Positions 955 to 55,509 of a DNA stretch of 64,000 nt are shown in pieces. This stretch comes from Patescibacteria group bacterium (GTDB lineage: Bacteria > Patescibacteriota > JABMPQ01 > JAQVVF01): contig JBAZSC010000003.1 of the NCBI GenBank assembly GCA_041662665.1, positions 4,603 through 68,602 on the forward strand. Direction: 5' to 3'. The position numbers and the translations under genes are program-made. The notes below the pieces were generated by a model. That model did not search any database, was not told the DNA's origin, and saw only the letters and a program-made list of their open reading frames with translations. Numbering within the stretch: the stretch's first letter is position 1; every line of letters starts with the position of its first letter.

Positions 955-1078
955 AATTTCTAATTTTTAATTTCTAATTTCTAATAAATTTCCAATTTCT
1001 AATTTCTAATGAATAACTTGTTTGAAAATTAATTCATTAAAAATTTAATAAAAATTGAAAATTAGGAATTAGAAATTG
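955..1078. repeat. Palindromic intergenic element, family A, between rpsL and rpsG
   Basis: aatttctaatttctaat ... gtttgaaaattaattcattaaaaattt ... attaggaattagaaatt. Confidence 0.6.
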
Positions 1079-1088
1079 CAGTTAATTT

Positions 1089-1559
1089 ATGGCAAGACGC
1101 AAAAGACAATATAAAAGAGAATTAAAGCCAGATCCAAAATATGGTAATTTGGTTGTCTCGAAATTTATAAATAGCATAATGGAAAGAGGCAAAAAAGGTG
1201 CAGCTAGAAAAACAATTTATAATACATTAGGTTTTATTTCTACTAAATTAAAAAAAGATCCTATTGAAATTTTTGATTTAGCTTTGAAAAATGTAGCTCC
1301 AGATTTGGAAATCAAAGGTAGAAGAATTGGTGGCGCTAACTATCAGATTCCTTATGAAGTAAGAGGTGATAGAAAACAAACTTTAGCTTTTAGATGGATT
1401 ATTGAAGCTGCTAAAGCTAAAAAAGGTCAGCCAATGTCTATTAGATTAGCAACTGAAATAATTGATGCTTCAAAAAATCAAGGATCTGCTGTTAGAAAGA
1501 AAGAAGATTCTCATAGAATGGCAAGAGCAAACAAAGCTTTTGCACATTTTGCAAGATAA
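1089..1559 (+). CDS. rpsG: 30S ribosomal protein S7
   Basis: S7-like sequence (PDPKYGN..., ...TLAFRWI...) in the conserved position after rpsL. Confidence 0.93.
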   Translation: MARRKRQYKRELKPDPKYGNLVVSKFINSIMERGKKGAARKTIYNTLGFISTKLKKDPIEIFDLALKNVAPDLEIKGRRIGGANYQIPYEVRGDRKQTLAFRWIIEAAKAKKGQPMSIRLATEIIDASKNQGSAVRKKEDSHRMARANKAFAHFAR

Positions 1560-1570
1560 AAATACGAATA

Positions 1571-1634
1571 TCCACCTTCGTCCTGCCTTCGCTTCGGCTA
1601 TGGCAGACAAGCCTGCGGGACTTCGGTGGACAAG
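1571..1634. repeat. GC-rich hairpin repeat, family 'CCACCTTCG...CTTCGGTGGACAAG', copy a
   Basis: tccaccttcg...cttcggtggacaag directly after the rpsG stop. GC-rich island in an AT-rich genome; related copies at 6681, 32143, 49626, 57534 and 62075. Confidence 0.7.
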
Positions 1635-1707
1635 TACGAATAATGCAAATGATACGAATTGCGAATACTGCAAATTCGAAATTTATATCATTTGCATTAT
1701 TTTTTTT
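1634..1707 (+). terminator. Rho-independent terminator candidate after rpsG
   Basis: Inverted repeat aatgcaaatgata / tatcatttgcatt followed by a T8 run. Confidence 0.5.
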
Positions 1708-1835
1708 GTTTAATTTTTATTGTGCATAAGATTGTTGCACTATTTTTATTTAATGATATATTATATTTAACTAGACAGATGCAGGTCGACTGTCAATAAA
1801 CTATTTAAAACAAAATAATTAATTAACAAAAAATT

Positions 1836-2252
1836 ATGAAGAAAATTTTTGCTTTTCTTACAGTTTGCGCACTTACATTAGGAGCAAATATTGCTTTCGC
1901 GCAAAATGATTTAGATTTTAATTTTACAACAACATCAACATTGAATGAAAGCGATGCGGAAGCATTAGCAGGATTAGGAATGGGAATGGGTGTTTTTGGA
2001 ATCATTGTTGCTATCATTGGTGGATTAATTGGATTGTTTTTCTTGATCTTCTGGATTATGATGTTAGTTGATTGTATTAAAAGAGAATTCCCAAATAGAG
2101 GCGTATGGTTGGCTGTTTTGATTATTACATTCTTTATTGGATGGTCATGGTTAGCATCAATCTTATATTATTTCATGGTAAAGAAAAAAAATGTTGGAAC
2201 AATGAAAGGCGGATCTTCAACTCCTGCTGCTCCAGCTGCACCGAAACAATAG
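1836..2252 (+). CDS. Hypothetical secreted/membrane protein with signal peptide, two TM helices and an Ala/Pro-rich C-terminus
   Basis: N-terminal signal-like MKKIFAFLTVCALTLGANIAFA and hydrophobic segments. No recognisable family. Confidence 0.55.
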   Translation: MKKIFAFLTVCALTLGANIAFAQNDLDFNFTTTSTLNESDAEALAGLGMGMGVFGIIVAIIGGLIGLFFLIFWIMMLVDCIKREFPNRGVWLAVLIITFFIGWSWLASILYYFMVKKKNVGTMKGGSSTPAAPAAPKQ

Positions 2253-2282
2253 TCATGAGTTTATAGAATATTACATATTTGC

Positions 2283-2312
2283 AAGGCTCCAATTAATTTT
2301 GGAGCCTTTTGA
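2283..2312 (+). terminator. Rho-independent terminator
   Basis: ggctccaattaattttggagcc hairpin followed by a T run. Confidence 0.6.
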
Positions 2313-2563
2313 TTTTATAATGAAGTTATTGAGTTATAAAGTTATAAAGTCCATAAAGTTTATAAAGTCTGACGTGTTGGTTTTGCGGAGAGATTCTACC
2401 CCCCCATGGGAGGGGTTTCGTAGTTGATGATGAGGGCATGTTTTTATTGTAAATTGTTTACTACGAATCCCTATCTTGGAAAGGTTAGAGGGTTTGGGCT
2501 TGCAAGATTTTTATTTTTTGTTTATACTATTTTAGATTTCTTTGACTAGAAGAGGAGGAAGAA

Positions 2564-3154
2564 ATGAGCACTTTAAAAAATTTTATTTTTTTGTTTATTG
2601 GAGGGAGTTTGTGTTTTATGGGTTATACTTTTTTTGTGAGTAATTTGAACATATTCCAGAGAATAATAGGTTTTTTACTTCTAACAATTTTTGTATTTAT
2701 TTTTGTGAAAATAACAAGGTATGAATATAGAAGTTCGAATTTTGTTAAAAATGTGCAAACTTTTGTTACAGGGAAAAAGCATTTTTGGAATTATTGTGAA
2801 TGCCATAAAAATGAGATTAGTGAAACGGCAAAATTATTGTTTGTATCAAGTATAGTAATTGGAATTTTTGATTTGTTTCTTTCTTTGTATATTTCTATTA
2901 ACTATGACATTATTGATGGATTATTTTTCTTCTTTTTATGTATGTTAATTGTTATGATTTTTGGAGTAAGTGCTGAATATGTAAGAAGATCAGATCAGAA
3001 ATATGCACATTTGAAAGATGAGAATCAAAAATTGCTGAAGCGGAAAGCAATTATTAAAGTTATTCATATTAATCCTGTTCAAGCAGGTCCTAATTTTGGC
3101 AGATATTTTTCAATTCACAATAAAAGAAATGAAAAAGATTATGGTCCTAATTGA
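2564..3154 (+). CDS. Hypothetical integral membrane protein
   Basis: Multiple hydrophobic helices; no recognisable motif. Inserted between rpsG and fusA. Confidence 0.5.
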   Translation: MSTLKNFIFLFIGGSLCFMGYTFFVSNLNIFQRIIGFLLLTIFVFIFVKITRYEYRSSNFVKNVQTFVTGKKHFWNYCECHKNEISETAKLLFVSSIVIGIFDLFLSLYISINYDIIDGLFFFFLCMLIVMIFGVSAEYVRRSDQKYAHLKDENQKLLKRKAIIKVIHINPVQAGPNFGRYFSIHNKRNEKDYGPN

Positions 3155-3337
3155 AGTTCTTTGTCTAGACTGTATTATCAGTCTTTTTTTATGCCAAAAA
3201 TTTTACATAAATTTCTGACAAATTTGAAACGGATAACATAGATAGCTCTTGCAATAATTTTATTTTGTAGTTATAATACGAGCATTGAGTTGGACTTAAG
3301 TGTTTTTAATTTTTATTTAACTTTTTAATTTTTTAAC

Positions 3338-5452
3338 ATGCCTAGAGAGTATTCATTAGAGAAAACAAGGAATATCGGAATTATTGCTCACATTGATGCT
3401 GGTAAAACAACTATTACTGAGCGTATTTTATTTTTTACTGGAATTTCACACAAAATTGGTGAAGTACATGAAGGTGCTGCAATCATGGATTGGATGGAAC
3501 AAGAACAAGAAAGAGGAATTACAATTACTTCAGCAGCAACAACTTGTTTTTGGTCTCCAATTTGGAAAAAAGAACAAGATAAACATCGCATCAATATCAT
3601 TGATACTCCTGGACACGTTGATTTTACTGTAGAAGTTGAAAGATCGTTGCGTGTTTTGGATGGAGCTGTTGTTGTTTTTGACGGCAAGATGGGTGTTGAG
3701 CCTCAATCAGAAACTGTTTGGCATCAAGCTGATAAATACCATGTTCCTAGAATTTGTTTTTTGAATAAGATCAATTTAGTTGGTGGCGATTTTTATAGAA
3801 GTTTAGATTCAATTCATAGCAGACTATCAAAAAATGCTCATCCAGTGATGTTGCCAATTGGTTCTGGTGAAGATATAAAAGGTGCTGTCGATCTTATAAT
3901 GATGAAAGCATATTTTAATGTTGAAGGAAAAGAAGAAGGCATGGAATTATCTGAACCTTCAGAAATTCCTGCTGACATGAAAGAAAAATGCGAAAAATAT
4001 CGTGCAGAATTAATTGAAAAAATTGTTGAAGCAGATGACAAGTTAATGGAAAAATATTTAGAAGGAGCTGAATTGACTGAAGAAGAAATAAGAGCAGCTT
4101 TAAGAAAAGCGACTTTAACTGGTAAGTTTTTTCCAGTTTTGGGTGGTGATGGTAGAAAAGCAATTATTAAAAAAGTATTGGATTATGTTATTGATTGTTT
4201 GCCAAGTCCTTTGGATGTACCAGCAATAGTTGCTTTTGATCCAGAAGATGAAACAAAAAAAATAGAAAGAAAAGTTTCTGATACAGAACCATTTACGGCT
4301 TTGGCGTTTAAAGTTGCAACTGATCCATTTGTAGGAAAATTAGTTTATTTTAGAGTTTATGCTGGAACTTTGACAGCTGGTTCTTACATTTTGAATTCAT
4401 CAACTGACAATAAAGAAAGAGTTGGTAGAATTGTTCGTATGCATGCAAATAAAAGAGAAGAAGTAGAAGAAGTTTATGCTGGAGATATTGCAGCAATTGT
4501 TGGTTTGAAAGGAACAACTACTGGTGATACTTTATGTGATATGGAACATCCTGTAATGTTGGAAAAAATTACTTTTCCTGAACCAGTTATTTCTATTGCA
4601 ATTGAGCCAAAAACAAAAGCTGATCAAGAAAAAATGTCTATGGCTTTGCGTGCTTTGTCTGAAGAAGATCCAACATTTAAAGTTCATACAGACGAAGAAA
4701 CGATGCAAACAATTATTTCTGGTATGGGTGAATTGCACTTGGATGTTTTAGTTGATAGAATGAAAAGAGAATTTAAAGTTGAAGCTAATATTGGAAATCC
4801 TCAAGTTGCTTATAAAGAAACTATTTTGGGTACTGCTGAAGCTGAAGGAAAATATATTAGACAATCAGGAGGTCATGGACAATATGGACATGTATGGTTA
4901 AGACTAGAGCCAAATGAAAGAAATAAAGGCTTCGAATTTATTAACGAAATTAAAGGTGGCGTAATTCCTCAAGAATTTATTCCAGCTGTTGGCAAAGGTT
5001 GTAAAGAAGCTTTGACTGAAGGCGTTATTGCTTCCTATCCAGTAATTGATATTAAGGCAACATTATATGATGGATCTTTCCATGATGTTGATTCCTCTGA
5101 AGCTGCTTTCAAAATTGCTGCATCTATGGCAATGAAAGAAGGCGAGAGAAGAGCAAAACCAATTTTACTTGAACCAATAATGAAAATTGAAGCAATGATG
5201 CCAGCTGAATTTATGGGTGATATTGTTGGAGATTTAAATTCAAAAAGAGCTCAAATTCAAAATATGGAAGACAGAGATAATTTAAAAATTATTTCTGCTA
5301 TGGTTCCATTGGCTTCGATGTTTGGATATGTAACAACAATTAGATCTATTACTTCTGGTCGTGGAAATTTCGTGATGGAATTTGATCATTATGAACAAGT
5401 TCCAAAAAATGTTGAATTGCAAATAGTCGAGGGACGTGTTGGTAAAAAATAA
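3338..5452 (+). CDS. fusA: Elongation factor G
   Basis: GTPase motifs [17 protein letters not shown] and NKID-like, 704 aa, EF-G domains IV-V (GQYGHVWL...). Confidence 0.96.
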
Positions 5453-5600
5453 TTGTAAAATTAGTAAAATTGATAAAATTAATAATTGAGTTTGTTAGAT
5501 AAGTTAGATTTGTTAGATAAGTTAGATTTGTTAGACTAGTTATAAATTCTTTAGGTCAGAAAATAAATCGTAATTAGCAAATATAATTTAAAATAAAAAT

Positions 5601-6023
5601 ATGACAATCAATGTTTTAGATCCAAAAGAATTCCCATCAATTTTAAGATTGTTAAAATCTACTGGTGGAAAATATATTATTGTTGAAGATGGAAAACCTT
5701 CTTTTGCTTTGATGTCAATTTCTGAATACGAAAAGTTATTAAATGATAAAGAAAAGACTGAAAAAAATTCTTCAAGCAAAGCTTTGATTGATAAAATAAA
5801 TTCGGATATTGCTAATTGGAAATTAGAGAATGAAGAAGAGGATAATGATGAAGAAGAAGATTATTCAGAATATATCCCAAAGAAAAATTGGGTAGAAGAT
5901 AAGCAATGCATTGATTATGAAGCGCTAAAAGAAAATAGTCAGAAAAATGATTTAGTGAATGAAGATTTGAGCTATTATTATGATGTTGATGAAGAACAAG
6001 AAGACGAAAGATTTGATTTTTAA
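5601..6023 (+). CDS. Phd/YefM-like antitoxin-fold N-terminal domain fused to a long acidic (D/E-rich) C-terminal tail
   Basis: N-terminus KYIIVEDGKPSFALMSISEYEKLL resembles the Phd/YefM core (ItrrGkpvavlvs.eeyesL). C-terminal half is highly acidic. Confidence 0.45.
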   Translation: MTINVLDPKEFPSILRLLKSTGGKYIIVEDGKPSFALMSISEYEKLLNDKEKTEKNSSSKALIDKINSDIANWKLENEEEDNDEEEDYSEYIPKKNWVEDKQCIDYEALKENSQKNDLVNEDLSYYYDVDEEQEDERFDF

Positions 6024-6077
6024 TATTGCAGGATTAAGTTAAATTGGATAAAAAGGAAATTTTGTTTATATTTATGT

Positions 6078-6497
6078 ATGAGATCTCTTATTTTGCATGT
6101 TAATAAATTTTCTACAGAGATTATTGAAAAATCTAAACGACCAAAAGAAATTATTCCCGAAAATAAAAAATCTAAAGCAGAGGAAATGAAAAATTGTTTA
6201 GTCGTCTTTTTTTGTGTAGAACAGGGAGATAGTGAAAAACAATTAGATGATTTATATAAGGAAATTTTGAAAACAGCTGACGAAGTTAAAACGAAAAACC
6301 TAATGATTTCTCCTTTTGTTCATTTATCAAATAAGATTGCTAGGCCTGAAGTGGCAAAACAACTTTATGAACTGCTAATTGACAAATTTATTGACTTAGA
6401 TTTTGTAATTAAATCATCACATTTTGGTTATCACAAAAGTCTATTGCTTGATATCAAAGGGCATCCAGGATCATTTCGTTATAGAGAGTTTTATTAG
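6078..6497 (+). CDS. Hypothetical protein
   Basis: ORF only. No Doc (HxFxDGNKR) or RelE/YoeB motifs, so it is not an obvious toxin partner for the upstream Phd-like gene. Confidence 0.4.
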   Translation: MRSLILHVNKFSTEIIEKSKRPKEIIPENKKSKAEEMKNCLVVFFCVEQGDSEKQLDDLYKEILKTADEVKTKNLMISPFVHLSNKIARPEVAKQLYELLIDKFIDLDFVIKSSHFGYHKSLLLDIKGHPGSFRYREFY

Positions 6498-6680
6498 AGA
6501 TTTAAGATTTGTAGTTATTAACAAAAAGGTCTTGCTTTATATCAAAAATATTGTTATAATGCTTCTTGCAAAATAGATTTTGGTAAAAACTATTTCTTAT
6601 TTTTGCAAAATTTTTTTAGATTATTATAACGAAGAATTTATATTTGACATTATAATTTTTTGCGTATATAATTAAAATAA

Positions 6681-6715
6681 TCCTCCTTCGTCTTTCTAAG
6701 ACTTCGGAGGATAAG
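6681..6715. repeat. GC-rich hairpin repeat, copy b (tcctccttcg...acttcggaggataag)
   Basis: Same TTCG / CTTCGG-flanked inverted repeat architecture, about 30 nt upstream of tuf. Confidence 0.6.
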
Positions 6716-6741
6716 TAATTAAATAAATTAAAATTAAAAAA

Positions 6742-7935: not shown

Positions 7936-7948
7936 TTTATTTTAATGT

Positions 7949-9893: not shown

Positions 9894-9972
9894 CGAGTAG
9901 CATGTAGAAAGTAGCAGGTAGAAAGCAGAACTTACTACTTACTACATTTTACTTTCTATTGGAAATAAATTT

Positions 9973-10377: not shown

Positions 10378-10478
10378 TAAATAATTTTCAATTACCAATT
10401 TTCAATTTTCAATTATTTTTTCGAAAATTGTAAAATGAAAATTTATTGAAAATTGATTATTGAAAATTTAATTTAAAT

Positions 10479-12202: not shown

Positions 12203-12281
12203 AAGCTGATACACGCTGATTTCTAACGCTGATGTGTATTGATTTAAAAGTTAATAATTTATATATTTTTCAAGTAAACAT

Positions 12282-15651: not shown

Positions 15652-15694
15652 TTTTAAAGTTATAAAGTTTTTAAAGTTATAAAGTACTAAACAT

Positions 15695-21333: not shown

Positions 21334-21371
21334 TTTTTAAAGTTATAAAGTTATAAAGTTTTTAAAGTACT

Positions 21372-22127
21372 ATGTCTAAAATCATTATAAAGACAGACGA
21401 AGAAATTGAAATAATTCATGAAGGTGGAAGAAAGCTGGCTCGAATTATGGAAATTTTGAAAGATGAAATATCAAGACCTGGATATCTTACAAAAGGATTG
21501 GATGCTAGAATAAATTTGCTGTGCGAAAAATTTGGCGCTAAACCTGCTTTTATGGGATATCGAGGTTATCCGGCAACTGTTTGTCTGTCTTTGAATGATG
21601 AAATTGTACATTGTCCTCCTGGCGACAGAATAATTAAAGAAGGAGATTTGGTTAGTTTAGATTTTGGGTTGAGATATAAGAATTTATATACTGATAGCGC
21701 AATTAGTTTTGGTGTTGGAAAGATGACGCCTTTGGCTGAAAAATTAATTAAAGTTACTGAAGCTTCATTATATAAAGGTATTGATCAAGTGCGTCCTGAT
21801 GGGCATATCGGAGATATTGGACAAGCAGTTTCGCGATATGCTGAAGCTAATGGATTTTCCGTTGTGCGTGATTTGACTGGTCATGGTGTAGGAAAGGAAG
21901 TTCATGAGCCTCCACAAATTTTAAATTATGGCAGAGAAGGTGTAGGACCAATTATGAAAAAAGGAATGGTTTTGGCAATTGAACCTATGGTCAATGTCGG
22001 TGATTGGAGAATAAAGCAAGGTGTTAATGGCTGGTCAATTATGACTGCTGATGGAGAGTTGTCAGCGCACTTTGAACATACTGTTGCTGTTACTGAGGAT
22101 GGATATGAGATTTTAACTCAGCAATAA
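21372..22127 (+). CDS. map: Methionine aminopeptidase type I
   Basis: 251 aa; metal ligands in conserved contexts (DFG..., HGVG, EPMV). Confidence 0.93.
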   Translation: MSKIIIKTDEEIEIIHEGGRKLARIMEILKDEISRPGYLTKGLDARINLLCEKFGAKPAFMGYRGYPATVCLSLNDEIVHCPPGDRIIKEGDLVSLDFGLRYKNLYTDSAISFGVGKMTPLAEKLIKVTEASLYKGIDQVRPDGHIGDIGQAVSRYAEANGFSVVRDLTGHGVGKEVHEPPQILNYGREGVGPIMKKGMVLAIEPMVNVGDWRIKQGVNGWSIMTADGELSAHFEHTVAVTEDGYEILTQQ

Positions 22128-22260
22128 TTTTCAATTTCTAATTTCTAATTTTTATTAAATTATTAATGAATTAATTTCTAAACATCGACGATAAAAATAG
22201 GTTTGAAAATTAATGCATTAGAAATTCAATAGAAATTAGAAATTTAAAATTAGAAATTTT
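22128..22260. repeat. Palindromic intergenic element, family A (aatttctaatttctaat ... attagaaattagaaatt arms)
   Basis: Inverted terminal arms around an AT-rich core. Homologous copies at 955-1078 and 55341-55509. Confidence 0.65.
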
Positions 22261-22264: not shown

Positions 22265-22645
22265 ATGAATATTCTAGCAATAGATTTTGGCAGTAAACAC
22301 ATTGGTTTAGCAAAAGGTGATGATCAAAACAAAATAGCTTTGCCTTTTTTAAGTTTGGAAAATAATGGTTTAAATAAATTAATTAACGATTTAAAAGAAA
22401 TTGTTAAAAATGAAAATATAGAGGAGATTGTTGTTGGATTGCCATTAAATATGTCAGGACAAAAAACAGATCAAACTAAAAAGACTGAGTATTTTGCAGA
22501 AAGATTAGGTAAAGAAATTAATATCAAAATTATTCTTGAAGATGAAAGATTGACATCTTTTGGGGCTAAAAAATTAGGTAGTGATGTTGATGAGCATCAA
22601 TTGGCTGCAAGAGAGATTTTACAAGGATATTTGGATAAGAATTAG
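22265..22645 (+). CDS. ruvX: Holliday-junction resolvase-like protein YqgF/RuvX
   Basis: MNILAIDFGSKHIGLAKGD...VVGLPLNMSGQ... RuvX/YqgF pattern. Confidence 0.85.
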   Translation: MNILAIDFGSKHIGLAKGDDQNKIALPFLSLENNGLNKLINDLKEIVKNENIEEIVVGLPLNMSGQKTDQTKKTEYFAERLGKEINIKIILEDERLTSFGAKKLGSDVDEHQLAAREILQGYLDKN

Positions 22646-25708: not shown

Positions 25709-25728
25709 TAATTATATTAACAAAGCCC

Positions 25729-25768
25729 CTCTTGTATTTATTTGGGGCTTTTTGTTTTTTTGATAAAA
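25729..25768 (+). terminator. Rho-independent terminator
   Basis: aaagcccctcttgtatttatttggggcttttt plus a T run. Confidence 0.6.
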
Positions 25769-25886
25769 GTTTGTTATAATATGGCGTAGAAGCGGATTAA
25801 ACGCTGATACTAACGCTGATTCGAACGCTGAAATGAGAATTTGAGATGTAGATCTTTAATTGTTGATAATTTTTATATTTTTTTTA

Positions 25887-27998: not shown

Positions 27999-28108
27999 CA
28001 AATCCCAAATTCCAAACAAATCCCAAATTACAAATTACAAAAATGACGATAGCTTGTAATTTGTGTTTTGTGGATTGTAATTTGTTTGGAATTTGGAGTT
28101 TGTAATTT
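27999..28108. repeat. Palindromic intergenic element, family B (caaatcccaaattccaaacaaat...acaaattacaaa / ttgtaatttgt...tttggaatttgg)
   Basis: Long imperfect inverted repeat between tpiA and fba. Copies at 38306-38428 and 59791-59900. Confidence 0.65.
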
Positions 28109-38300: not shown

Positions 38301-38305
38301 TTAAA

Positions 38306-38428
38306 AATTACAAATCTCAAATTCCAAACAAAATCCAAATTACAAATTACAAAGTCGACGGTTTGTTTTTTGTGTTTTGTATATTGTAATTTGTTTGGGA
38401 TTTGGAATTTGTGATTTGGGATTTAATG
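38306..38428. repeat. Palindromic intergenic element, family B, between eno and gpmI
   Basis: caaatctcaaattccaaacaaaatccaaattacaaattacaaa ... ttgtaatttgtttgggatttggaatttgtgatttggg. Confidence 0.65.
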
Positions 38429-43557: not shown

Positions 43558-45293
43558 ATGCAAAGACTTTGGCAGGTAAAACAAAAAATAAGTGAAGATT
43601 TTATTAATAAATTTCCAGAATTTGATTCTGTGATTTTGCAATTGTTATTTAATAGAGGAATTGATAATCAGAAAAAGATTGATGAATTTTTTAATCCAGA
43701 TTATTCAAAAAATTTATTTGATCCATTTTTATTGAAAGATATGGATCGAGCGGTTGAAAGAATTTTTAAGGCATTAAAGAATAAAGAAAGAGTTGGAATT
43801 TTTGGTGACTATGATGCTGATGGCGTAACATCATCTGTTTTATTAACAGAATTATTTAAAAAAATTGGTTTGGCTGGGCAAGTTTATATTCCTGATCGAG
43901 TCTCTGAAGGCTATGGAATGAATAAGAAAGCAATTGATTGGCTAGCAAAAAAAGATATTAAATTGATTGTCAGTTGTGATTGTGGTGTTTCAAACAAGGA
44001 AGAAATTGATTATGCAAAAGAAAAATATGGAATTGATTGCGTAATTACTGATCACCATCATGTTCCTATAGATTTTGATAAAAAATATATTGTTGTTGAC
44101 TCAAAAAGAAAGGGTGATAAATATCCATATAAAGAGTTGGCGGGTGTTGGCGTTGTTTTTAAGCTGGCTCAGGCATTGATCACTCGAATTAATTTTCGAA
44201 TAAAAGCGAATGAATTTTCGAATGTTAAACTTGAAAATGGTTGGGAAAAGAGTTTGCTTGATTTAGTGACGATTGGCACGATTGCGGATTGTTCGCCGAT
44301 TATTTCGGAGAATAGAACATTGGTGAAATATGGATTAAATATTATAAAAGAGACTGAAAGAATTGGTTTGCAAAGTTTGATGCAAGTAGCTTGCGTTGAT
44401 CCAAAATTAATTAATAGCGACAGAATCGGTTTTGCAATTGCGCCAAGAATTAATTCAGCTGGCAGAATGGATCATGCTTCGGCATCGTATAAACTTTTGA
44501 TTACAGAAGATTTGGAAAAAGCAGTTTGGTTGTCTAAAAAAATCGATAAGACAAATTCAAGCCGGCAATCTTTGACAAGTAAATTAGTTGATGAGGCAAA
44601 AAAGAAAATTGGCGATGTCAAAGATCAAAAAGTATTAATGGCATCTGGTGGAAATGGCCTTTGGGCGTTGTAGGTATTGTGGCTGGCAGGATTTGTGAAG
44701 AATATAATCGGCCAACTTTGATTTGTGGTAAGGGCTTGATTGAATCTGTTGGATCAGCTAGAAGTATTCCTGCTTTTGATATTATTGACGCTATTTCTTC
44801 TTGTAAAAATTTGTTATTAGAATATGGCGGACATAAACAAGCAGCTGGCTTTTCTTTGAAAAATGAAAATTTTGAAAAATTTCATAAAAAATTAGAAAAA
44901 ATTGCAACAGAAAAAATAGATGAAAAAGATTTACAGCCAGTAATTGAAATTGACAGCGAAGTTGATTTTAAAGATGTGAATTGGAATTTGTATGAAAGAT
45001 TATTAGATTTTGAACCTCATGGAATTGGAAATCGAAAGCCGGTTTTTTTGGCAAAAGATATTCAAGTTATTAATGCTTATCCTGTTGGCAAAACAAAAAA
45101 GCATTTAAAAATGAAAATTAAGTCTAATTCCGATAGTCGGATTTTTGATGTGATTGGTTTTAATCATGGACATAGAGTAGAGGAGTTAAATAAAAAAGGT
45201 AAAATGGATATTGTTTTTAATTTGGATTGTAATGAATGGAATGGAGAAAAGATTTTGCAGTTGAGACTTGTTGATTTTAGGATTTCACTCTAA
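43558..45293 (+). pseudogene. recJ: Single-stranded-DNA exonuclease RecJ, split into two ORFs (43558..44673 and 44661..45293) by a frameshift near 44650-44662
   Basis: N-terminal ORF carries DHH motifs (GDYDADGVTS, ITDHHH). C-terminal ORF carries DHHA1 (GGHKQAAGF). The canonical ...WxPGVVGIVAGRI junction appears as WKWPLGVVGIVAGRI in the shifted frame. Could be a real pseudogene, a sequencing error or a slippage site. Confidence 0.7.
44181..44230. repeat. TCGAAT-rich repeat inserted in-frame within recJ
   Basis: cactcgaattaattttcgaataaaagcgaatgaattttcgaatg encodes ITRINFRIKANEFSN. Its 22-nt core aattttcgaataaaagcgaat recurs at 45296 just after the recJ stop. Confidence 0.65.
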
Positions 45294-45295
45294 TA

Positions 45296-48913: not shown

Positions 48914-49016
48914 ACTAGTTAGATTTGTTAGACTGGTTAACAATCTGAAATCTGACATTGCTAAATTGTTTCATTGTTAAATTGTTTTTTGGCTTATTTG
49001 AGCTTATATAAATACA

Positions 49017-49045
49017 TTGACAAAAATGTATTTTTTTGTTATGTT
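49017..49045 (+). promoter_or_regulatory. Sigma70-like promoter for the RNase P RNA
   Basis: TTGACA (49017-49022), 17-nt spacer, TATGTT (49040-49045); about 6 nt upstream of the predicted P1 5' end. Confidence 0.5.
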
Positions 49046-49050
49046 GATAT

Positions 49051-49618
49051 GACTCAAGTAAGTTGAGTGATTGCTCTGTACATGGTTTGCAAAAATTATG
49101 TGCGGAGAGGAAAGTCCGGGCATCATTTGGAGGTTGGATGTGAGAAATGGGAAATGGGAAAAGAAAAATTCTCATTTTCTCATATCCCATATCCAACTTC
49201 CAATTTCGTGGTAGTTCCGAAATGGAACCAAGTATAAGAAATTGCTAACTGCTAATAGTTTATAGCTAATAGTTGATAGTTGTTTCGAAGCTAGGACCAG
49301 TGCCACAGAGACGTAAACTACCGGGGAACTAGTAACTAGGAAACTAGTAATTAGGGAACTGGAAAAGGTGAAAAGAGTGGTGTAAAAGACCACAGATTGT
49401 CATGGTGACATGGCAATGGGGTAAACTCTACCTGATGCAACCCAATATAAACTGGGGCATGAATTGTCAAGCAATTGACAATCCAGAGAGATAATCACTG
49501 AATCTCTAATTTGCACTAATTTAGCACAAATAGCACGAATAACTATTTGTGAAATTCGTGATAAATTTGTGCCTATTAGAGATTCTACAGAACCTGGCTT
49601 ATAGACTTACTTGAGTCA
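49051..49618 (+). ncRNA. rnpB: RNase P RNA (bacterial type A), unusually long at about 568 nt owing to AT-rich helix expansions
   Basis: P4 strands GAGGAAAGTCCGGGC (49087-49101) and ACAGAACCTGGCTTA (49588-49602). Conserved AAGGTGAAAAGAGTGGTGTAAAAGACCAC. 13-bp P1 pairing gactcaagtaagt / acttacttgagtc. Confidence 0.85.
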
Positions 49619-49625
49619 TTTTAAT

Positions 49626-49658
49626 CTGCCTACGTCTTGAGGGACTTCGGTAGACAAG
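49626..49658. repeat. GC-rich hairpin repeat, copy f, just 3' of rnpB
   Basis: tctgcctacgtcttgagggacttcggtagacaag. Confidence 0.55.
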
Positions 49659-49783
49659 AAGTTATAAACAACCCAACATGTTTTGTTGAGTTTTTTTTAT
49701 TTTTGGGTTAGAATAATGTTAGTAAACAGGAAACAGAAAACAGTATTTTCTATTTTCTATTTTTCATTAACTATTTTCTATAA

Positions 49784-51169
49784 ATGAAACGATCTGAATT
49801 ATTTTTTACTGCGGCATTAGTACCACTTGACTTTTTAATGTTATTATTGGCTGCTGTTTCAGCTTATTTTTTGAGATTCACTTCTTACTTTGTAGATCTT
49901 CGAGAAGTAAAATTTGATATGCCGTTTGCAAAATTTATAGTATTTGTTTCTATTATTGCTTTGGCTTGGTTAATAATTTTTGCCTTTTTGGGATTATATG
50001 ATGTAAAAAAGAAAAGAAGATTTGTTGATGATTTATATTTAGTTTTTGTTGCAGTTTCAACTGGCATGGCAGCAATATTTGCATATTTGTTTTTTTCACA
50101 AGAATTATTTGGGTCGCGTTTCATTGTTTTATTTGTATGGTTGTTCAGTATTGTCTATGTTGTTATTGCAAGACAATTTGTAAAAATTTTTCAAAAATGG
50201 CTTTATAGATTCAACATTGGCGTTCATCGAGTAGTTTTAGTTGGTCTTAATTCAATCAGTCAAAGCATAGTTAAATATTTAACCGAAAAAAAATATTCTG
50301 GCTATAAAGTGGTGGCAAGAATAAAAAGTTTTGATGAAACAGTTGAAGGAACATTGGAAAGAATTTCTCAACGAAAAGGCATTGATGAAATTATTCAGAT
50401 AGATCCAAAATTACCAAAAGGCCAAGTATTATCTTTGATTGATTTTGCTGATGAAAGAAAAATTGATTTTAAATATGCTCCAGATCTTTTTGGAACTCAA
50501 GCAACGAATATTGATGTTGAAACTTTTTATGGCGTACCGATTGTATATTTAAGGAGAACTCCTTTGGATGGATGGGGTAGAATTATAAAAAGAATAATTG
50601 ATTTTATTTTAGCATTAATTTTATTGATTATTTTATCGCCAATATTTTTTTTAGTCGCATTAATTATAAAAATTGATTCACGAGGTCCAGTGTTTGTGAG
50701 ATTGAAGCGTGTTAAAAAAGATGGAGAATTCTATATTTTTAAATTCAGGTCAATGGTTAAAAATGCGCATAAAATGAAAAAGGAATTATTAAAATATAGT
50801 GATAGAAAGGGTCCATTATTTAAGATGAAGGATGATCCTCGAGTTACCAGGGTTGGCAGAATTTTGAGAAAAACAAGAATTGATGAATTACCGCAATTGA
50901 TGAATGTTGTTTGCAATGAAATGAGCTTAATCGGTCCAAGACCGCATGAGCCACAAGAGGTTGAAAAATATACAAAACATCAAAGAAGAGTTTTGGAAAT
51001 AAAACCTGGAATGACTGGAATGGCTCAAGTTTCTGGAGCTTCAGATCTTAGTTTTAATGAAGAAGTTAGATTAGATACTTATTATATTGAAGATTGGTCA
51101 TTGTTATTAGATTTACAGATTTTTTTAAAAACAATTATTATTGTTATAACAATGCATGGAGCAGCGTAG
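49784..51169 (+). CDS. Polyprenyl-phosphate sugar phosphotransferase (bacterial sugar transferase family, WbaP/EpsB-like), initiating enzyme
   Basis: N-terminal TM bundle, then C-terminal catalytic domain with RPxxPxLxQL-type block ...DELPQLMNV... and LIGPRPH. Confidence 0.85.
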   Translation: MKRSELFFTAALVPLDFLMLLLAAVSAYFLRFTSYFVDLREVKFDMPFAKFIVFVSIIALAWLIIFAFLGLYDVKKKRRFVDDLYLVFVAVSTGMAAIFAYLFFSQELFGSRFIVLFVWLFSIVYVVIARQFVKIFQKWLYRFNIGVHRVVLVGLNSISQSIVKYLTEKKYSGYKVVARIKSFDETVEGTLERISQRKGIDEIIQIDPKLPKGQVLSLIDFADERKIDFKYAPDLFGTQATNIDVETFYGVPIVYLRRTPLDGWGRIIKRIIDFILALILLIILSPIFFLVALIIKIDSRGPVFVRLKRVKKDGEFYIFKFRSMVKNAHKMKKELLKYSDRKGPLFKMKDDPRVTRVGRILRKTRIDELPQLMNVVCNEMSLIGPRPHEPQEVEKYTKHQRRVLEIKPGMTGMAQVSGASDLSFNEEVRLDTYYIEDWSLLLDLQIFLKTIIIVITMHGAA

Positions 51170-51312
51170 TGCGAAATCCTGAATTCTAAATCCTAAACTC
51201 TAAACAAATCAAAAATCCAAATATTAAAATTCAAAGAGTTGGGTTTTGAAATTTAGGTTTTATGTTTTGAATTTATTTAGAATTTAGAGTTTAGAAATTA
51301 GAATTTTAATTT

Positions 51313-52437
51313 ATGAAGGTCGCTTTAGTACATGATTTTTTAAATCAAGTTGGTGGAGCTGAAAAAGTTTTGGAAATTTTTCATGAAATTTTTCCGAGAG
51401 CTCCTGTCTATACAATTACCTACGATGAAAAAGAAACTCGGGGTGTTTTTAAGCACTTAAATATTAAGACGTCTTTTATTCAACGTTTGCCTTTTGGTGT
51501 CAAACAATACAAATGGTATATTTCAATGATGCCGGCAGCAATTGAGCAATTTGATTTTTCTAAATATGATATTGTTTTATCTGATTGTTCTGCTTTTTCA
51601 AAAGGCGTGATTGTTCGACCAGAGACTTTGCATATTAGCTATGTTCATTCACCAACAAGATATCTTTGGAATGATACGCACAGCTATACTGAAGAAATAA
51701 AACAACCAGGTGTTATCAAAAAAATGTTGCCTTTAGTATTGCAAAAAATTAGGACTTGGGATCAATTGGCAGCTTTGAGAGTTGATAAAATGATTGCAAA
51801 TTCCAAAACTGTTTCAGAAAGAATTGAAAAATATTATAAAAGAAAAAGTGATATTATTTATCCGCCAGTTGAAACAGACAAATATTATATTTCTAATGAC
51901 ATTGATGATTATTTTTTGGTTGTCTCTAGACTTCGTCCATACAAGCGAGTTGATTTAGTTGTTGAAGCTTTTAATGCATTGCGTTTGCCTTTGAAAGTAA
52001 TCGGCACAGGAGAAGAATTAGAAACTTTAAAGAAAATGGCAAATGATAATATTGAATTTTTAGGTCCAGTTTCTGATAAAGAAAAAGCTTATTATCTTTC
52101 AAGATGCAAGGCGTTTATTCATCCGCAAGAAGAAGATTTTGGTATTACAGCTCTGGAAGCAATGGCATCTGGTAGACCAGTAATTGCTTATAAAAAAGGC
52201 GGAGCAGTGGAAACTGTAATTCCTGGTAAGAGCGGTATTCTATTTGAAGATCAATCGCCTTGGAGTTTAGTTGATGCAGTTCGTGATTTTGATTCGAAAA
52301 ATTTTAATCCAGAAGAAATTAGAAAAAGAGCTTTGGATTTTGATATTAAATTATTTAAAGATAGAATTGAAAAATATATTTTTGATTCTTATCGAGAATT
52401 TAAAGATAGCAGAGAAAATTATTATAAAATAAATTAA
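51313..52437 (+). CDS. Glycosyltransferase family 4
   Basis: GT4 E-x7-E region EDFGITALEAMASGRPVIA. Confidence 0.82.
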   Translation: MKVALVHDFLNQVGGAEKVLEIFHEIFPRAPVYTITYDEKETRGVFKHLNIKTSFIQRLPFGVKQYKWYISMMPAAIEQFDFSKYDIVLSDCSAFSKGVIVRPETLHISYVHSPTRYLWNDTHSYTEEIKQPGVIKKMLPLVLQKIRTWDQLAALRVDKMIANSKTVSERIEKYYKRKSDIIYPPVETDKYYISNDIDDYFLVVSRLRPYKRVDLVVEAFNALRLPLKVIGTGEELETLKKMANDNIEFLGPVSDKEKAYYLSRCKAFIHPQEEDFGITALEAMASGRPVIAYKKGGAVETVIPGKSGILFEDQSPWSLVDAVRDFDSKNFNPEEIRKRALDFDIKLFKDRIEKYIFDSYREFKDSRENYYKIN

Positions 52438-52446
52438 AAAATAATT

Positions 52447-53058
52447 ATGAATCCAAAGAATTATATTCAAGTAGTTTTAAGGCACAAATTTACAATAATT
52501 GCGTGTATTGTTTTGTGCGGTTTGGCAGCGTTGATTTATGCTTATGTAAAGCCTCAATCTTTTAGTTCAAATATTTCAATGTCTTTTCATAGAGTGAACA
52601 AAGAGGCAACAGTTGATTATCAATATGATAATTATTATGCTGGCAAGGCTGTAGAAATTGTTTCTAATACTGTTGCTGGATGGTTGCAAACTCCAAATAT
52701 TGTTCAGGAAATTTATACAACAGCAAATGTTACTCCTGATGATATTTATAAAGATGCAAAGAAATTTAAACCAAAACAAGTTTCTGCTCATCAAGTAGAA
52801 ATGAGATTAACTAATAAAAATAGGCAAGATTTGGAAAAATTATCAAAAGCAACTGTGTCTGTTATGAAAAATAAAGTTGCAAATTTGGAAGTAACAAATG
52901 AACAGAAAAATGCTTTTGATGTGATTTCTGAAGATCCAATAATTACAGAAGTAAAATATAGTCCATTAATGTTGACTTTGATTGGACTTGTGGCTGGATT
53001 ATTTGTGGGCATTGGATTAGCATTTTTGTGGGAGTATTTTAGAGATGAAAGTAACTAG
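52447..53058 (+). CDS. Short polysaccharide co-polymerase / chain-length determinant (Wzz-like) protein
   Basis: N-terminal TM, periplasmic-type middle, C-terminal TM with a G-rich helix (LIGLVAGLFVGIGLAFLWEYF). Located within the glycan locus. Confidence 0.5.
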   Translation: MNPKNYIQVVLRHKFTIIACIVLCGLAALIYAYVKPQSFSSNISMSFHRVNKEATVDYQYDNYYAGKAVEIVSNTVAGWLQTPNIVQEIYTTANVTPDDIYKDAKKFKPKQVSAHQVEMRLTNKNRQDLEKLSKATVSVMKNKVANLEVTNEQKNAFDVISEDPIITEVKYSPLMLTLIGLVAGLFVGIGLAFLWEYFRDESN

Positions 53059-53084
53059 TAATAAGTAACTAGTAACTGAATTTT

Positions 53085-54134
53085 ATGGAGAGATCTGTTG
53101 AGACTTCGCAATTTGCAGATATTAAAGAACCTGGAGAAGTAAAAGAAACTCCAGGTTTTGAATTTGAAAAAACAGAATATTCAGAACAGTTTGTTACAGA
53201 AGCAAATGAAATTGCAAAAGCAATAGAAAGAGACAAGCCAGTTTTGCTTGATCAAGTGTTGAAATTAAGAGAAGCATTAGAAAAAATGGTTGAATCAGAT
53301 CCAAAAGTTGAAGCAAAAAGATTGTTTGGCGAAGGATATATGGGACCAGATGAAATAGAAGCTCATTTTACAGTTCAAGATGAGAATGGAAATGTTGAAA
53401 AGTTATTTGAATATACTCCTGAAGAAAAAGAGAAGATCAATCAGATGTTGCGAGAGAAATTAGATGATCCGCAAATCAAAGATTTAATCAGAAGAACACC
53501 AAAAGAAGAATTGCGAGAAAAATTTCAGCTATTTCTTTTTCCTGATAAATTCAAAGATGGCATGCCGGTAACAATGAAAAGTTTGAATGAAAGATTTCAG
53601 CCTGAAATGACAAGACGAGGTTTAGGAAAATTGTTTGTCGGTGATGTTACTGAAAGTTGGTATGCTAAAGTTGAAGAGCCATTTTTTATTTCAGATTCAG
53701 CTAAAAAATTAGAATGGAAACTAGTTAGTCGTGGAAATATTGAAGGTTCATATAATCATGATGCTTTTGATGAAACTAGAATTTTGCGAGAATTTTTAAC
53801 AGTAAATAACTTAGCAACTACTGAAGAATTAGCCGAGGCTTGGAATGGAAAACTAGATGCTTTAAGACAGTTACAACTAACTGACGTGAAGGATGCAGCC
53901 AGACAATTATCAGAACTTAAAATTAACCAAAATTACAGAATGGATCCTTTGCAAGTGATATTCTTGCATGCAATGCAGAAAAGTTTTCTAGGAAATAATT
54001 ATACAAGAACCGCTAAGCTTTCATCAGATGGCCGCTTGGTTGATGTTGGTCGCTGTAGTGCTGGTGGTGCGGGAGTGCGTACTGCGTTTCTTGTTAATTT
54101 CAGTGGTATTTTGGGTGTTTCTTTTTCCATCTAA
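53085..54134 (+). CDS. Unknown-family protein, third member of the family at 40851/41612 (shared N-terminal ~80 aa, different C-terminal region)
   Basis: IKEPGEVKETPGFEFEKTEYSE...LKLREALEKM parallels IMESGVEKTPGLEIAKTEESE...IMLREALGKL. Confidence 0.5.
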   Translation: MERSVETSQFADIKEPGEVKETPGFEFEKTEYSEQFVTEANEIAKAIERDKPVLLDQVLKLREALEKMVESDPKVEAKRLFGEGYMGPDEIEAHFTVQDENGNVEKLFEYTPEEKEKINQMLREKLDDPQIKDLIRRTPKEELREKFQLFLFPDKFKDGMPVTMKSLNERFQPEMTRRGLGKLFVGDVTESWYAKVEEPFFISDSAKKLEWKLVSRGNIEGSYNHDAFDETRILREFLTVNNLATTEELAEAWNGKLDALRQLQLTDVKDAARQLSELKINQNYRMDPLQVIFLHAMQKSFLGNNYTRTAKLSSDGRLVDVGRCSAGGAGVRTAFLVNFSGILGVSFSI

Positions 54135-54146
54135 TTTTATTTAAGT

Positions 54147-55337
54147 ATGATAATCGGTATCGATATAAGATCATTAATGGAAGGGAAAAGAAGCGGAGTA
54201 CAGCAATATCTGATTAATTTAATGCGCAATTTGTTTGTTATAGATTCTAAAAATCAATACAAACTATTTTGTAATGCTTATAAAAAAAATAGTTTGGATG
54301 TCAGTGAATTTGAAAAATTTCCTAACGTCAAAGTTTGCAAATTTAATTATCCTAATAAGGTTTTGAATACTAGTTTCTGGTTGTTGAAATATCCAAAGAT
54401 CGATAGTTTGATCAAAGATTTGGATATTTTTTTTGCGCCAAATATTTTGTTTTCAGCCATTTCTCCTAATTGTAAATTTGTAACAACAATTCATGATTTG
54501 TCATTTGATTATTTTAGACGATTTTATTCAATGAAGCGGAGATTTTGGCATAATATTGTTGGACCGAAAAAAAAGATTAAGAAATCCGATGCTGTAATTT
54601 GTGTTTCGGAGTCGACGGCGAATGATTTGATTAATAAATATGGTGTTTCTAAAGATAAAGTGCATGTTGTATATTCGGGCATAGAGAATAGACAACAGGA
54701 AACAGAAAACAGGAAACTAGATATTAAAAATAAATATAATTTGTCGGATAATTTTGTGTTGTTTCTTGGAGCAATGGAGCCAAGGAAAAATATTGTGGGA
54801 TTGATTGAAGCCTTTGAGTTACTTAAAAAACAAGAAAACAATAAAACAAAAAAACAAACTGACTACAAATTACAAATAACAAATAATTTTCAAAATTTGA
54901 AACTTGTTGTTGCTGGTTCTTCTGGCTGGTTAGAAAAAAGAGTGAATAAAATTTATGAGCAAAGTAAATTTAAAAATGATATAATGTTTTTAGGATATGT
55001 TGATGAAAAAGATAAATCTGCTTTGTACAGTTTAGCAAAATTGTTTGTTTATCCGTCTTTTTATGAAGGATTTGGTTTTCCGCCCCTTGAAGCAATGGCT
55101 TGCAATTGTCCAGTTGTAACTTCTAATGTTGGATCATTATCTGAAGTTTGTGAAAAAGCAGCGATTTTAGTTGATCCATATAATGTTAATGAAATCTTTG
55201 AAGCAATGAAGCAAGGACTTTCTGATGAAAAGTTGCGTAAATATTTGATTGCTGAAGGGCAAAAACAAGTTGTTAAGTTTAATTGGCAGAATTGTGCGAG
55301 GGAGACGCTTAAGGTATTCGAAATGTTAAATAGTTGA
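54147..55337 (+). CDS. Glycosyltransferase family 4
   Basis: EGFGFPPLEAMACNCPVVTSNVGSLSEV. Confidence 0.82.
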   Translation: MIIGIDIRSLMEGKRSGVQQYLINLMRNLFVIDSKNQYKLFCNAYKKNSLDVSEFEKFPNVKVCKFNYPNKVLNTSFWLLKYPKIDSLIKDLDIFFAPNILFSAISPNCKFVTTIHDLSFDYFRRFYSMKRRFWHNIVGPKKKIKKSDAVICVSESTANDLINKYGVSKDKVHVVYSGIENRQQETENRKLDIKNKYNLSDNFVLFLGAMEPRKNIVGLIEAFELLKKQENNKTKKQTDYKLQITNNFQNLKLVVAGSSGWLEKRVNKIYEQSKFKNDIMFLGYVDEKDKSALYSLAKLFVYPSFYEGFGFPPLEAMACNCPVVTSNVGSLSEVCEKAAILVDPYNVNEIFEAMKQGLSDEKLRKYLIAEGQKQVVKFNWQNCARETLKVFEMLNS

Positions 55338-55340
55338 TGA

Positions 55341-55509
55341 ATTTTTAATTTTCAATTTCTAATTTCTATTAAATTTTTAATGCATTAATTTCTAAACGCT
55401 TTCGTCAAAGGTTTAAAAATTAGTTAATTAGAGTTAAAAGCGACATTAAGGAGCTTTTAACGGGTAGTAACCCTTTAATAGAAATTGAAAATTAGAAATT
55501 AGAAATTTT
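55341..55509. repeat. Palindromic intergenic element, family A, longest copy
   Basis: ttcaatttctaatttctat ... gaaattgaaaattagaaattagaaatttt. Contains the internal hairpin gttaaaagc...gcttttaac, which also occurs at 43385-43412. Confidence 0.65.

Follow-up and report, generated by a model that had tools for sequence, protein, structure and literature searches.

The enterobacterial repetitive intergenic consensus (ERIC, or IRU) is an imperfect palindrome of ~125 bp (~127 bp) found in transcribed intergenic regions of operons, in either orientation. Its sequence is conserved between genera while its chromosomal locations differ between species, and we know of neither a transposase nor a clear target duplication for it. 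The Correia elements of Neisseria (CREE/NEMIS) are intergenic palindromic repeats of 100–155 bp, found in one genus only, with 26-bp terminal repeats, a TA target duplication and a site for integration host factor; they are co-transcribed, and their RNA hairpins are cleaved by RNase III. The Rickettsia palindromic elements (RPE) are palindromes of 100–150 bp in the small AT-rich genomes of host-dependent bacteria. Their copies are diverged and come without a transposase or heptad periodicity; they also lie within functional genes, including RNA genes, and are typically in frame in protein-coding genes. The repetitive extragenic palindromes (REP/BIME) are abundant between co-directional genes and are known targets of further insertion. 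Here we describe family A, a palindromic repeat with three copies (A1, A2 and A3) between genes of a 64,000-nucleotide stretch of DNA from a Patescibacteria group bacterium (contig JBAZSC010000003.1, positions 4,603 to 68,602; the window). In our judgement there is about an even chance that family A is a copy-propagated palindromic repeat of the ERIC/Correia/RPE kind, co-transcribed with its neighbours and looped out in a hairpin that RNase III probably cuts.

The window is 31% G+C, with all long open reading frames (ORFs) on the plus strand. Its genes include the ribosomal-protein operons str, S10 and spc, together with those for glycolysis, a NiFe hydrogenase and a cluster of glycosyltransferases. 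The three copies are genuine and far above chance, as shuffle tests and a profile of foreign copies agree. The 17-mer AATTTCTAATTTCTAAT, allowing two mismatches, matches the window 23 times against 0.41 expected, clustered at three sites, and the internal block AATGCATTAATTTCTAAAC matches four times against 0.24 expected, always within the three copies. The three spacers are colinear in a MAFFT alignment with a column identity of 71%. The original prediction named one finding that would refute it, namely copies aligning no better than shuffled AT-rich sequence. The pairwise local scores were 9.3–16.2 standard deviations above shuffles, and they exceed the scores against every other intergenic region of the window.

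The strictest test was a hidden Markov model (HMM) built from 13 copies, all of other genomes, and run on the window. It matched A1 at 955–1076 (E = 8.2e-16 on the plus strand, 1.2e-08 on the minus strand), A2 at 22126–22257 (E = 1.1e-15 plus, 1.6e-14 minus) and A3 at 55341–55507 (E = 7e-14 minus, 8.8e-10 plus). By profile score, A1 has plus polarity, A3 has minus polarity, and A2 is nearly symmetric. Beyond these, the window gave no match to the model except a weak relative at 10383–10468 (E = 5e-5), an inverted-repeat hairpin orthologous to a similar hairpin in the related genome CAZNOH01. The three sites first proposed were right, and so were their neighbours (S12/S7, Peptidase_M24 (map)/RuvX and GT4/GT4), but the edges had to be refined to those in Table 1.

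The copies had been described as 17–20-nt inverted terminal arms round a core. This does not hold, as the inverted symmetry spans the entire element. The conserved internal blocks are present, but they are the inner portions of both arms and not a separate core. In A2, the arms of 58 nt (22126–22183 and 22201–22258) are 81% complementary around a 17-nt loop. The A1 arms are 42 nt and 81% complementary, and the outer arms of A3 (55340–55373 and 55474–55507) are 34 nt and 85% complementary. The 58-nt 5′ arm consists of four AATTYYY heptads (28 nt), 4 nt (ATTA), a heptad, the 8-mer AATGMATT, a further heptad and AAAC. The 3′ arm mirrors it with GTTT, a heptad, AATKCATT, a heptad, NAAT and four RRRAATT-type heptads. 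Across the family, length ranges from 123 to 168 bp and the loop is short and variable. The inner 5′ arm of A1 is degenerate, and a 41-nt insertion is nested in the 3′ arm of A3; neither the rest of the window nor any of 340 loci has a second copy of this insertion.

Each copy is predicted to form a long hairpin. RNA folding of the plus strand gave –23.7 kcal/mol (z –3.3) for A1, –32.5 kcal/mol (z –6.2) for A2 and –52.1 kcal/mol (z –9.0) for A3, and folding of the minus strand gave –31.2 (z –5.8), –33.2 (z –7.0) and –45.6 kcal/mol (z –7.4), respectively. Since all three give strong hairpins from either strand, folding has no strand preference. The suggestion of a structured intergenic RNA is thus borne out as far as the predicted folding goes (z –3.3 to –9.0 against shuffles). 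However, the absent strand preference, the mixed orientation of copies relative to genes and the absent compensatory change between arms argue against a selected RNA structure.

Family A is spread over genomes of the candidate phyla radiation (CPR). A loose scan with the core pattern, one genome per species, gave 120 matches that are mostly chance in AT-rich non-CPR genomes, and the CPR subset was selected by context. The full module is present in ~24 of the 32 CPR-labelled loci matched by this pattern, and nhmmer found ~30 full copies in 1.5 Mb of retrieved loci. Up to three copies occur per 8 kb: loci L007, L025 and L082 have two each, and L119 has three within a ribosomal-protein operon. 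The carriers are about 25 genomes, whose record titles read Parcubacteria, Saccharibacteria, Berkelbacteria (candidate phylum), Yanofskybacteria, Moraniibacteriota and 'Patescibacteria group', and the distribution is patchy. Four carriers (L036, L074, L114 and L119; 40–47% G+C) bear the labels Gammaproteobacteria or Bdellovibrionales; the gene order after secY in L119 is CPR-like. A wrong label or wrong binning of CPR contigs could explain these four, as could a range of the family that extends past CPR. Family A is absent from 80 metagenome loci encoding Map proteins of ~50% identity (median 52% G+C); in the 48 of these with at least 4 kb there was no period-7 signal, and spacer folding was barely beyond shuffles (mean z –0.77).

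When 17 copies from at least 13 genomes are aligned, their flanks are unrelated right up to the first AATT and just past the last AATT, and exactly four terminal heptads stand on each side in all aligned copies. Because of these sharp boundaries and the fixed number of terminal heptads, family A is a discrete unit and not a microsatellite. The copies are 10–26% G+C in host loci of 31–52% G+C (r = 0.22). As copy G+C stays low whatever the host G+C, host composition does not account for the sequence. A shared non-repetitive core, GTTTGAAAATTAATKCATT, is matched in copies of other candidate phyla with E values down to 1e-21, and subfamily signatures, such as AATGATC and AATTTAC heptads, reappear in distant genomes. 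In public assemblies made independently for the same genomes or close relatives, contigs terminate inside family A copies; L128 begins 15 nt before rpsG, L336 begins 32 nt before the GT4 gene, and L124 is a further case. It therefore seems that short-read assemblies of these genomes break at the repeats. Small hairpins are nested inside the copies A3, L025, L045 and L047. Those of L025, L045 and L047 are G+C-rich.

Orthologous spacers were compared with those of two relatives, STF1_73 (JAQVVF01) and CAZNOH01, whose gene DNA is 82–85% identical to the window, and of further related contigs where available. Between rpsL and rpsG, the window has family A, STF1_73 has a shorter second subfamily, and CAZNOH01 has no element (26 nt). 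At M50/rpsL, the window has a CAGAAAA-type hairpin, STF1_73 has none (40 nt), and CAZNOH01 has family A (E = 9e-12). The map/ruvX spacer holds family A in the window, family C (AATCCTA) in CAZNOH01, a second AATT subfamily in L211 and an AAATGTC family in L212. The sugar-transferase/GT4 spacer is occupied by family C in the window, a third family in STF1_73 and family A in CAZNOH01 (E = 4e-12). The GT4/GT4 spacer holds family A in the window and family C in CAZNOH01, and gene order differs in STF1_73. Families A and C are thus swapped between these two spacers in the window and CAZNOH01. At DUF4012/MurJ, family B is present in the window and L339, and family C in STF1_73 and CAZNOH01. The window copy of family C is colinear with the one at map/ruvX of CAZNOH01, and these two copies, at different sites of the two genomes, align full-length with about two-thirds of positions identical. 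Since orthologous spacers hold differing families or nothing, they are lasting 'slots' whose occupant changes at the time scale of species divergence. The rplD/rplW spacer has a 79-nt hairpin in the window and none in STF1_73 (16 nt) or CAZNOH01 (17 nt). This GTAGAAA/TTACTAC heptad hairpin (9894–9972), which starts 1–3 nt from the stop codon, is the clearest case of gain or loss.

The arms do not co-vary. Among 20 copies and 47 pairs, 79.8% of cells are paired, compared with 80.6±0.6% after partners were shuffled among sequences (score 0.123 versus 0.122). Native 5′ and 3′ halves fold no better than inter-copy chimeras (–24.1 versus –25.5 kcal/mol, p = 0.84), and at the three variable positions of each terminal heptad, 66% of native and 69% of chimeric cells are paired (p = 0.91). 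All three tests for compensatory change between the arms are thus null. Pairing in register is far above that of slid registers (35–58%), and therefore the palindrome belongs to the consensus of the family. Such a lack of covariation is expected if the sources of the copies were palindromic and no selection for pairing acts on single copies, and the pattern fits descent of this kind. The AATT cores and the next T are almost invariant, while positions 6–7 of the heptads drift and are confined to pyrimidines in the 5′ arm and to purines in the 3′ arm.

The copies are fitted closely between genes. The first heptad of A2 shares 2 nt with the TAA stop codon of map, and the ruvX ATG is 6 nt past its last heptad. 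A3, with a polarity opposite to that of A1, has a TGA stop codon 2 nt before and an ATG 4 nt after it. For 13 copies between co-directional ORFs of at least 80 codons, the median gaps are 2 nt from stop to element and 7 nt from element to start. Housekeeping gene pairs flank the copies: rpsL/rpsG, map/ruvX, cdaA/ybbR, murA/mreB and ribosomal-protein genes. Elsewhere than in the window, the orientation relative to genes is mixed, with ~7 sense and ~11 antisense copies. No terminator-like site is present at any of the three window copies, and promoter-like sites there show no excess over shuffles; we therefore take the copies to be co-transcribed with their neighbours. Real G+C-rich terminators with a T run occur elsewhere in the window, for example at 25720–25755, 2285–2320 and 56655–56690.

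Family A also occurs inside 23S rRNA genes. In L067, a copy is inserted after position 583 of the bacterial large-subunit (LSU) model, within a hairpin, helix 25 of 23S rRNA (Rfam LSU, 1215 bits), which is the helix-25 site of classical intervening sequences (IVS). In L001, a copy lies within the 3′ part of the 23S gene, and L030 has a core-pattern match within a 23S gene. L067 has a second 23S insertion (5121–5267), in which 146 nt stand in place of 6 at LSU model position ~283. This insertion, a heptad hairpin of CGCAGAT type in which a G+C-rich hairpin is nested, resembles the CGCTGAT arrays of the window (12203–12235 and 25795–25835). Passages of one study of CPR 23S genes describe many short unclassified insertions at IVS sites, supposedly cut by RNase III, and do not tie these rRNA insertions to a dispersed genome-wide repeat family (PMC11270868).

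These data suggest a course of events for the copy-propagated repeat. Family A would spread as essentially selfish DNA, either itself mobile or moved by recombination, and copies would persist where a self-folding insert is harmless, that is, at stop/start junctions in operons and at helix tips in structural RNA genes. Transcription would run through a copy together with the neighbouring genes. In the RNA, the arms would pair to a long imperfect AU-rich hairpin, by which the insert is looped out. The paired stem would bring the upstream stop and the downstream start within ~10 nt at its base, and this juxtaposition is a plausible cause of tolerance in tight operons. Where the RNA must be trimmed, the hairpin would probably be cut by RNase III, like the intervening sequences of 23S rRNA.

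The original prediction of an element like a MITE (a miniature inverted-repeat transposable element) holds in part. Family A is a discrete, short, non-coding palindrome with sharp ends and terminal inverted repeats, and its copies are multiple, dispersed and polymorphic in presence (three in 64 kb, with empty sites in relatives), but neither a target-site duplication nor a transposase or longer parent was found. Several observations weigh against a mobile, copy-propagated repeat. The check for target-site duplication gave no direct repeat in the 5-nt flanks of 17 copies, and none was found at three filled-versus-empty orthologous sites, although in both comparisons a duplicated AATT would be hidden within the element's own termini. 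A strain-level comparison of L121 with L122 gave no element indel. No gene for a transposase or a REP-associated tyrosine transposase (RAYT)-like protein is among the 44 window ORFs scanned (Pfam) or the genes flanking copies elsewhere, which are a small part of any genome; the same genes include no RNase III or Csp. No widely spaced pairs of arms that would mark a longer parent element are present in the window or the loci examined. Nor was a vector found: the core pattern had 0 matches in IMG/VR, and blastn against phage and plasmid collections gave no match, though the low-complexity filter may hide some. The simpler pattern (AATTTYY)4 matched 120 IMG/VR loci (L215–L334), all plain microsatellites and none with the hairpin module; heptamer microsatellites of the forms (AATTTTT)n and (AATTAAA)n are frequent in viral contigs, of which many are giant-virus metagenome-assembled genomes. 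Copies within one genome are 79% identical, hardly more than the 75% between genomes or candidate phyla, and thus there is no sign of a recent burst. The near-invariant AATT phasing points to a sequence-level constraint on each copy, which neutral decay of dead copies does not predict. Some spacers are filled in all relatives examined (map/ruvX 4/4, DUF4012/MurJ 4/4, sugar-transferase/GT4 3/3), which could mean that a hairpin is needed there; REP-like insertion targeting could also explain such repeated filling. Our confidence in the copy-propagated repeat goes no further because duplication, transposase and vector were not found, the AATT phasing is unexplained, and the always-filled spacers leave room for rivals.

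The always-filled spacers lead to the alternative of a selected intercistronic hairpin ('hairpin punctuation'), which would serve RNase III processing, stabilise mRNA ends or couple stop and start for translation, the sequence family of the stem being irrelevant. The hairpins in every relative examined belong to differing families, as such a role would allow; the predicted folds are strong, the copies are flush between stop and start codons, and the window spacers as a class fold far above coding DNA (mean z –2.7 versus –0.3). A 5′ arm that varies only among pyrimidines and a 3′ arm that varies only among purines also leave most positions pairable without compensation. We nevertheless regard it as doubtful, because the arms do not co-vary, because folding has no strand preference and both gene orientations occur, because close relatives have empty sites (rpsL/rpsG, 26 nt; rplD/rplW, 16–17 nt; M50/rpsL, 40 nt), because the module is also in 23S rRNA genes, where operon punctuation has no meaning, and because a generic stem needs no conservation of an AT-rich sequence across candidate phyla. 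A further alternative is a protein-binding array, in which a CPR protein binds the AATT repeated every 7 nt, six per arm, on double-stranded DNA or single-stranded RNA, and the palindrome is two converging arrays. In ~20 copies from many genomes, AATT and the next T are near-invariant against free drift at heptad positions 6–7, heptad number and spacing are fixed, and the sequence is kept whatever the host G+C and independently of orientation. The ribbon-helix-helix omega repressor binds 7-bp heptads, and cold-shock-domain proteins on single-stranded RNA each bind one heptamer. Heptamer binding by CspB is cited in a passage of PMC4679880. However, other families with unrelated heptads use the same spacers interchangeably, and one protein cannot account for all of them. 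As there is also no candidate protein (neither a Csp nor an obvious partner among the scanned window ORFs), and copies inside rRNA helices are left unexplained, a binding array seems improbable.

Family A could also be a by-product of mutation in situ, made by polymerase slippage and template switching in an AT-rich, repair-poor genome, with the likeness of the three copies due to convergence. Heptad periodicity is indeed general in the window spacers (lag-7 and lag-14 autocorrelation), the heptad families are many and unrelated, AT-rich viral contigs commonly have plain (AATTTTT)n microsatellites, and among the long simple repeats of prokaryotes heptanucleotides are given as the commonest (Mrazek 2007, cited in a passage of PMC4679880). 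Against this stand the sharp ends, the constant four terminal heptads, the non-repetitive core common to other candidate phyla, the AT-rich copies in hosts of 47–52% G+C and the presence of the family at non-orthologous sites of related genomes. The result with the foreign-copy HMM largely refutes convergent slippage for family A, and we consider this origin very improbable. Least credible is a transcription signal, be it an intrinsic terminator, an attenuator or a mobile promoter. It would suit an intergenic hairpin, and TTTT follows A2 and A3, but at all three copies terminator-like sites are absent and promoter-like sites are no more numerous than in shuffled sequence. The stems are AU-rich, in contrast to the true terminators of the window, and copies lie inside normally co-transcribed operons (rpsL–rpsG, cdaA–ybbR). 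An intrinsic Rho-independent terminator was rejected, as none of the three copies has a G+C-rich stem with a U tract. A bolder proposal, which we think unlikely, would make the hairpin cassettes obligatory operon punctuation: interchangeable families (A, B, C and others) would fill most spacers, cleavage of their stems, probably by RNase III, would yield separate mRNAs in the manner of mitochondrial tRNA punctuation, a CPR-specific factor would both read the AATT phasing and copy the cassettes, and such cassettes would also make up the short insertions of CPR rRNA and RNase P RNA.

Family A is the most extreme case of a broader phenomenon in the window. The spacers have lag-7 and lag-14 autocorrelations of 0.37 and 0.35, compared with 0.29 in coding DNA, and their mean fold z is –2.7 on either strand, compared with –0.3 for coding controls. 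Strong hairpins of other heptads are present in ~18 of 41 window spacers. These other families have unrelated heptads, including CAAATTA, AATCCTA, GTAGAAA and CGCTGAT. The positions of family A, its parts and the other repeats are collected in Table 1.

Table 1. Positions of family A copies, their parts and other repeat families (window coordinates unless a contig is named).
Feature	Position	Strand	Context or remark
A1	955-1077	+	between rpsL (503-946) and rpsG (1089-1559); stop 8 nt before, ATG 11 nt after
A1 5′ terminal array, four AATTYYY heptads	955-982	+	
A1 conserved core GTTTGAAAATTAATTCATT	1020-1038	+	inner part of 3′ arm
A1 3′ terminal array, four RRRAATT-type heptads	1050-1077	+	
A2	22126-22258	+	between map (21372-22127) and ruvX (22265-22645); most complete palindrome
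A2 inner 5′ arm AATGAATT-AATTTCT-AAAC	22165-22183	+	
A2 loop, 17 nt	22184-22200	+	non-conserved
A2 inner 3′ arm GTTT-GAAAATT-AATGCATT	22201-22219	+	
A3	55340-55507	-	between GT4 glycosyltransferase genes 54147-55337 and 55512-56639
A3 inner arm AATGCATT-AATTTCT-AAAC	55379-55397	+	identical to the block of the original prediction
Nested 41-nt insertion in A3 3′ arm	55433-55473	+	alignment gap; folds as two small hairpins itself
Degenerate short fourth relative	10383-10468	.	rplW/rplB spacer; AATTTTC/GAAAATT heptad hairpin without core
Family B (CAAATTA/CAAATCC heptads)	27999-28102, 38305-38424, 59786-59901		layout 7,7,7,4,7,7,7 loop-mirror
Family C (AATCCTA heptads)	51170-51312; L209 9858-10000; L337 5875-6000		
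Direct (non-inverted) arrays of 8-mer GTTATAAA	14716-14752, 15652-15694, 21334-21371, 56640-56660, 2320-2370		
G+C-rich hairpin family CCACCTTCG...CTTCGGTGG/GGACAAG	1570-1635, 6683-6715, 62070-62170, 49625-49650		conspicuous against the 31% G+C background

The arms of family B are up to 50 nt, with fold z down to –8.3. The 3′ arm of the copy at 38305–38424 enters an ORF called from TTG 38377, and because of this overlap the true start of the ORF is probably farther downstream. The arrays of GTTATAAA occupy short spacers right past stop codons (rplX/rplE, rpsN/rpsH and adk/map); the corresponding spacers of CAZNOH01 have instead a G+C-rich hairpin family, gtagagacg...cgtctctac. Two unrelated metagenome contigs of higher G+C have G+C-rich hairpins of heptads or 8-mers, GGGACAGT.../...CTGTTCCA, between convergent genes (L155 6021–6113 and L137 12018–12105; z –8 to –10.5). 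Hairpins built of repeats are thus not confined to AT-rich genomes.

A search of the window against Rfam 15 gave RNase P RNA as the sole pass at the gathering score, and family A had none; the best match on A2 had E = 0.16 and 16.6 bits against an 80-bit threshold. The RNase P RNA (RF00010, 137.9 bits; 49055–49617) is 563 nt against a model of 367 positions. It has three inserts made of heptad-type repeats akin to the intergenic hairpins: 144 nt replacing ~15 positions, 22 nt, and 71 nt within an inverted repeat (49500–49541/49544–49585). Two protein genes of the window also deserve mention. The recJ gene appears split into overlapping ORFs at 43558–44673 (DHH) and 44661–45293 (DHHA1 and RecJ_OB), which could be a frameshift, a sequencing error or a genuine split gene. 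Between fusA and tuf, a stand-alone ORF (6078–6497) matches an archaea-type threonyl-tRNA synthetase editing domain (PF08915, E = 2e-26).

Much of bacterial diversity belongs to the CPR, whose non-coding DNA has hardly been studied. A hairpin module conserved across candidate phyla would explain the inverted-repeat densities of CPR phyla, the highest reported (PMC13155455). It would also explain part of the short 'uncharacterised' insertions of CPR 23S rRNA described in passages of PMC11270868. As public contigs end inside copies, the module would explain some CPR contig breaks as well, and family A offers a specific, searchable sequence marker for such elements. It raises the questions of what keeps AATT every 7 nt without covariation and what shifts interchangeable cassettes among the same spacers of operons. 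Either a novel way of mobilising DNA or a novel kind of operon mRNA processing could emerge from the answer, in organisms whose regulatory machinery is minimal.

A full-text search of the literature, including literal sequence strings, found no published description of family A. Its fixed heptad architecture, its conservation across candidate phyla independent of host composition, the absent covariation and the swapping of families between spacers are unusual. Passages of PMC3733652 describe REPs as G+C-rich sequences of 20–40 bp with a GTAG/CGTC head, tied to a RAYT gene. Family A is 3–5 times longer (123–168 bp), 13–22% G+C, and has neither a GTAG/CGTC head nor a RAYT in view; its length, low G+C and absent head rule out a REP/BIME identity. 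The heptamer repeats of other phyla, TAACTGA in Beggiatoaceae and Cyanobacteria and the cyanobacterial short tandemly repeated repetitive (STRR) sequences, are intergenic, have period 7 and lie near start codons, with a patchy distribution across phyla that suggests transfer by an unknown mechanism (PMC4679880). However, these are direct tandem arrays of variable copy number with no predicted fold. Family A shares the period but has inverted heptads of fixed number around a conserved non-repetitive core, and an STRR-like heptanucleotide array was therefore rejected. CRISPR arrays and TIGR arrays, whose 36-nt units stand beside Tas genes (PMC12045711), were rejected as well, because family A copies stand singly and scattered beside housekeeping genes and lack spacer units.

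The copy in L067 is like the IVS of 23S helices 25 and 45, an extended stem-loop at the tip of a helix. The likeness holds for L067 only, as the window copies lie between protein genes and not in rRNA. The copies known here lie in spacers and some rRNA genes, in contrast to the in-frame protein-coding insertions typical of RPE. Processing by RNase III would be a trait in common with Correia, which differs from family A in having a visible target duplication. There is a resemblance to ERIC too: like it, family A is an imperfect palindrome flush between operon genes, conserved across taxa and at locations that differ between relatives. ERIC is G+C-rich and probably unrelated to it in sequence, whereas family A is 10–26% G+C, has phased AATT heptads in a fixed [7x4][4][7][8][7][4] plan, spans candidate phyla and not one family, and is also found in rRNA genes. 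Thus family A appears to resemble ERIC in behaviour, and we do not claim it as a member of that family.

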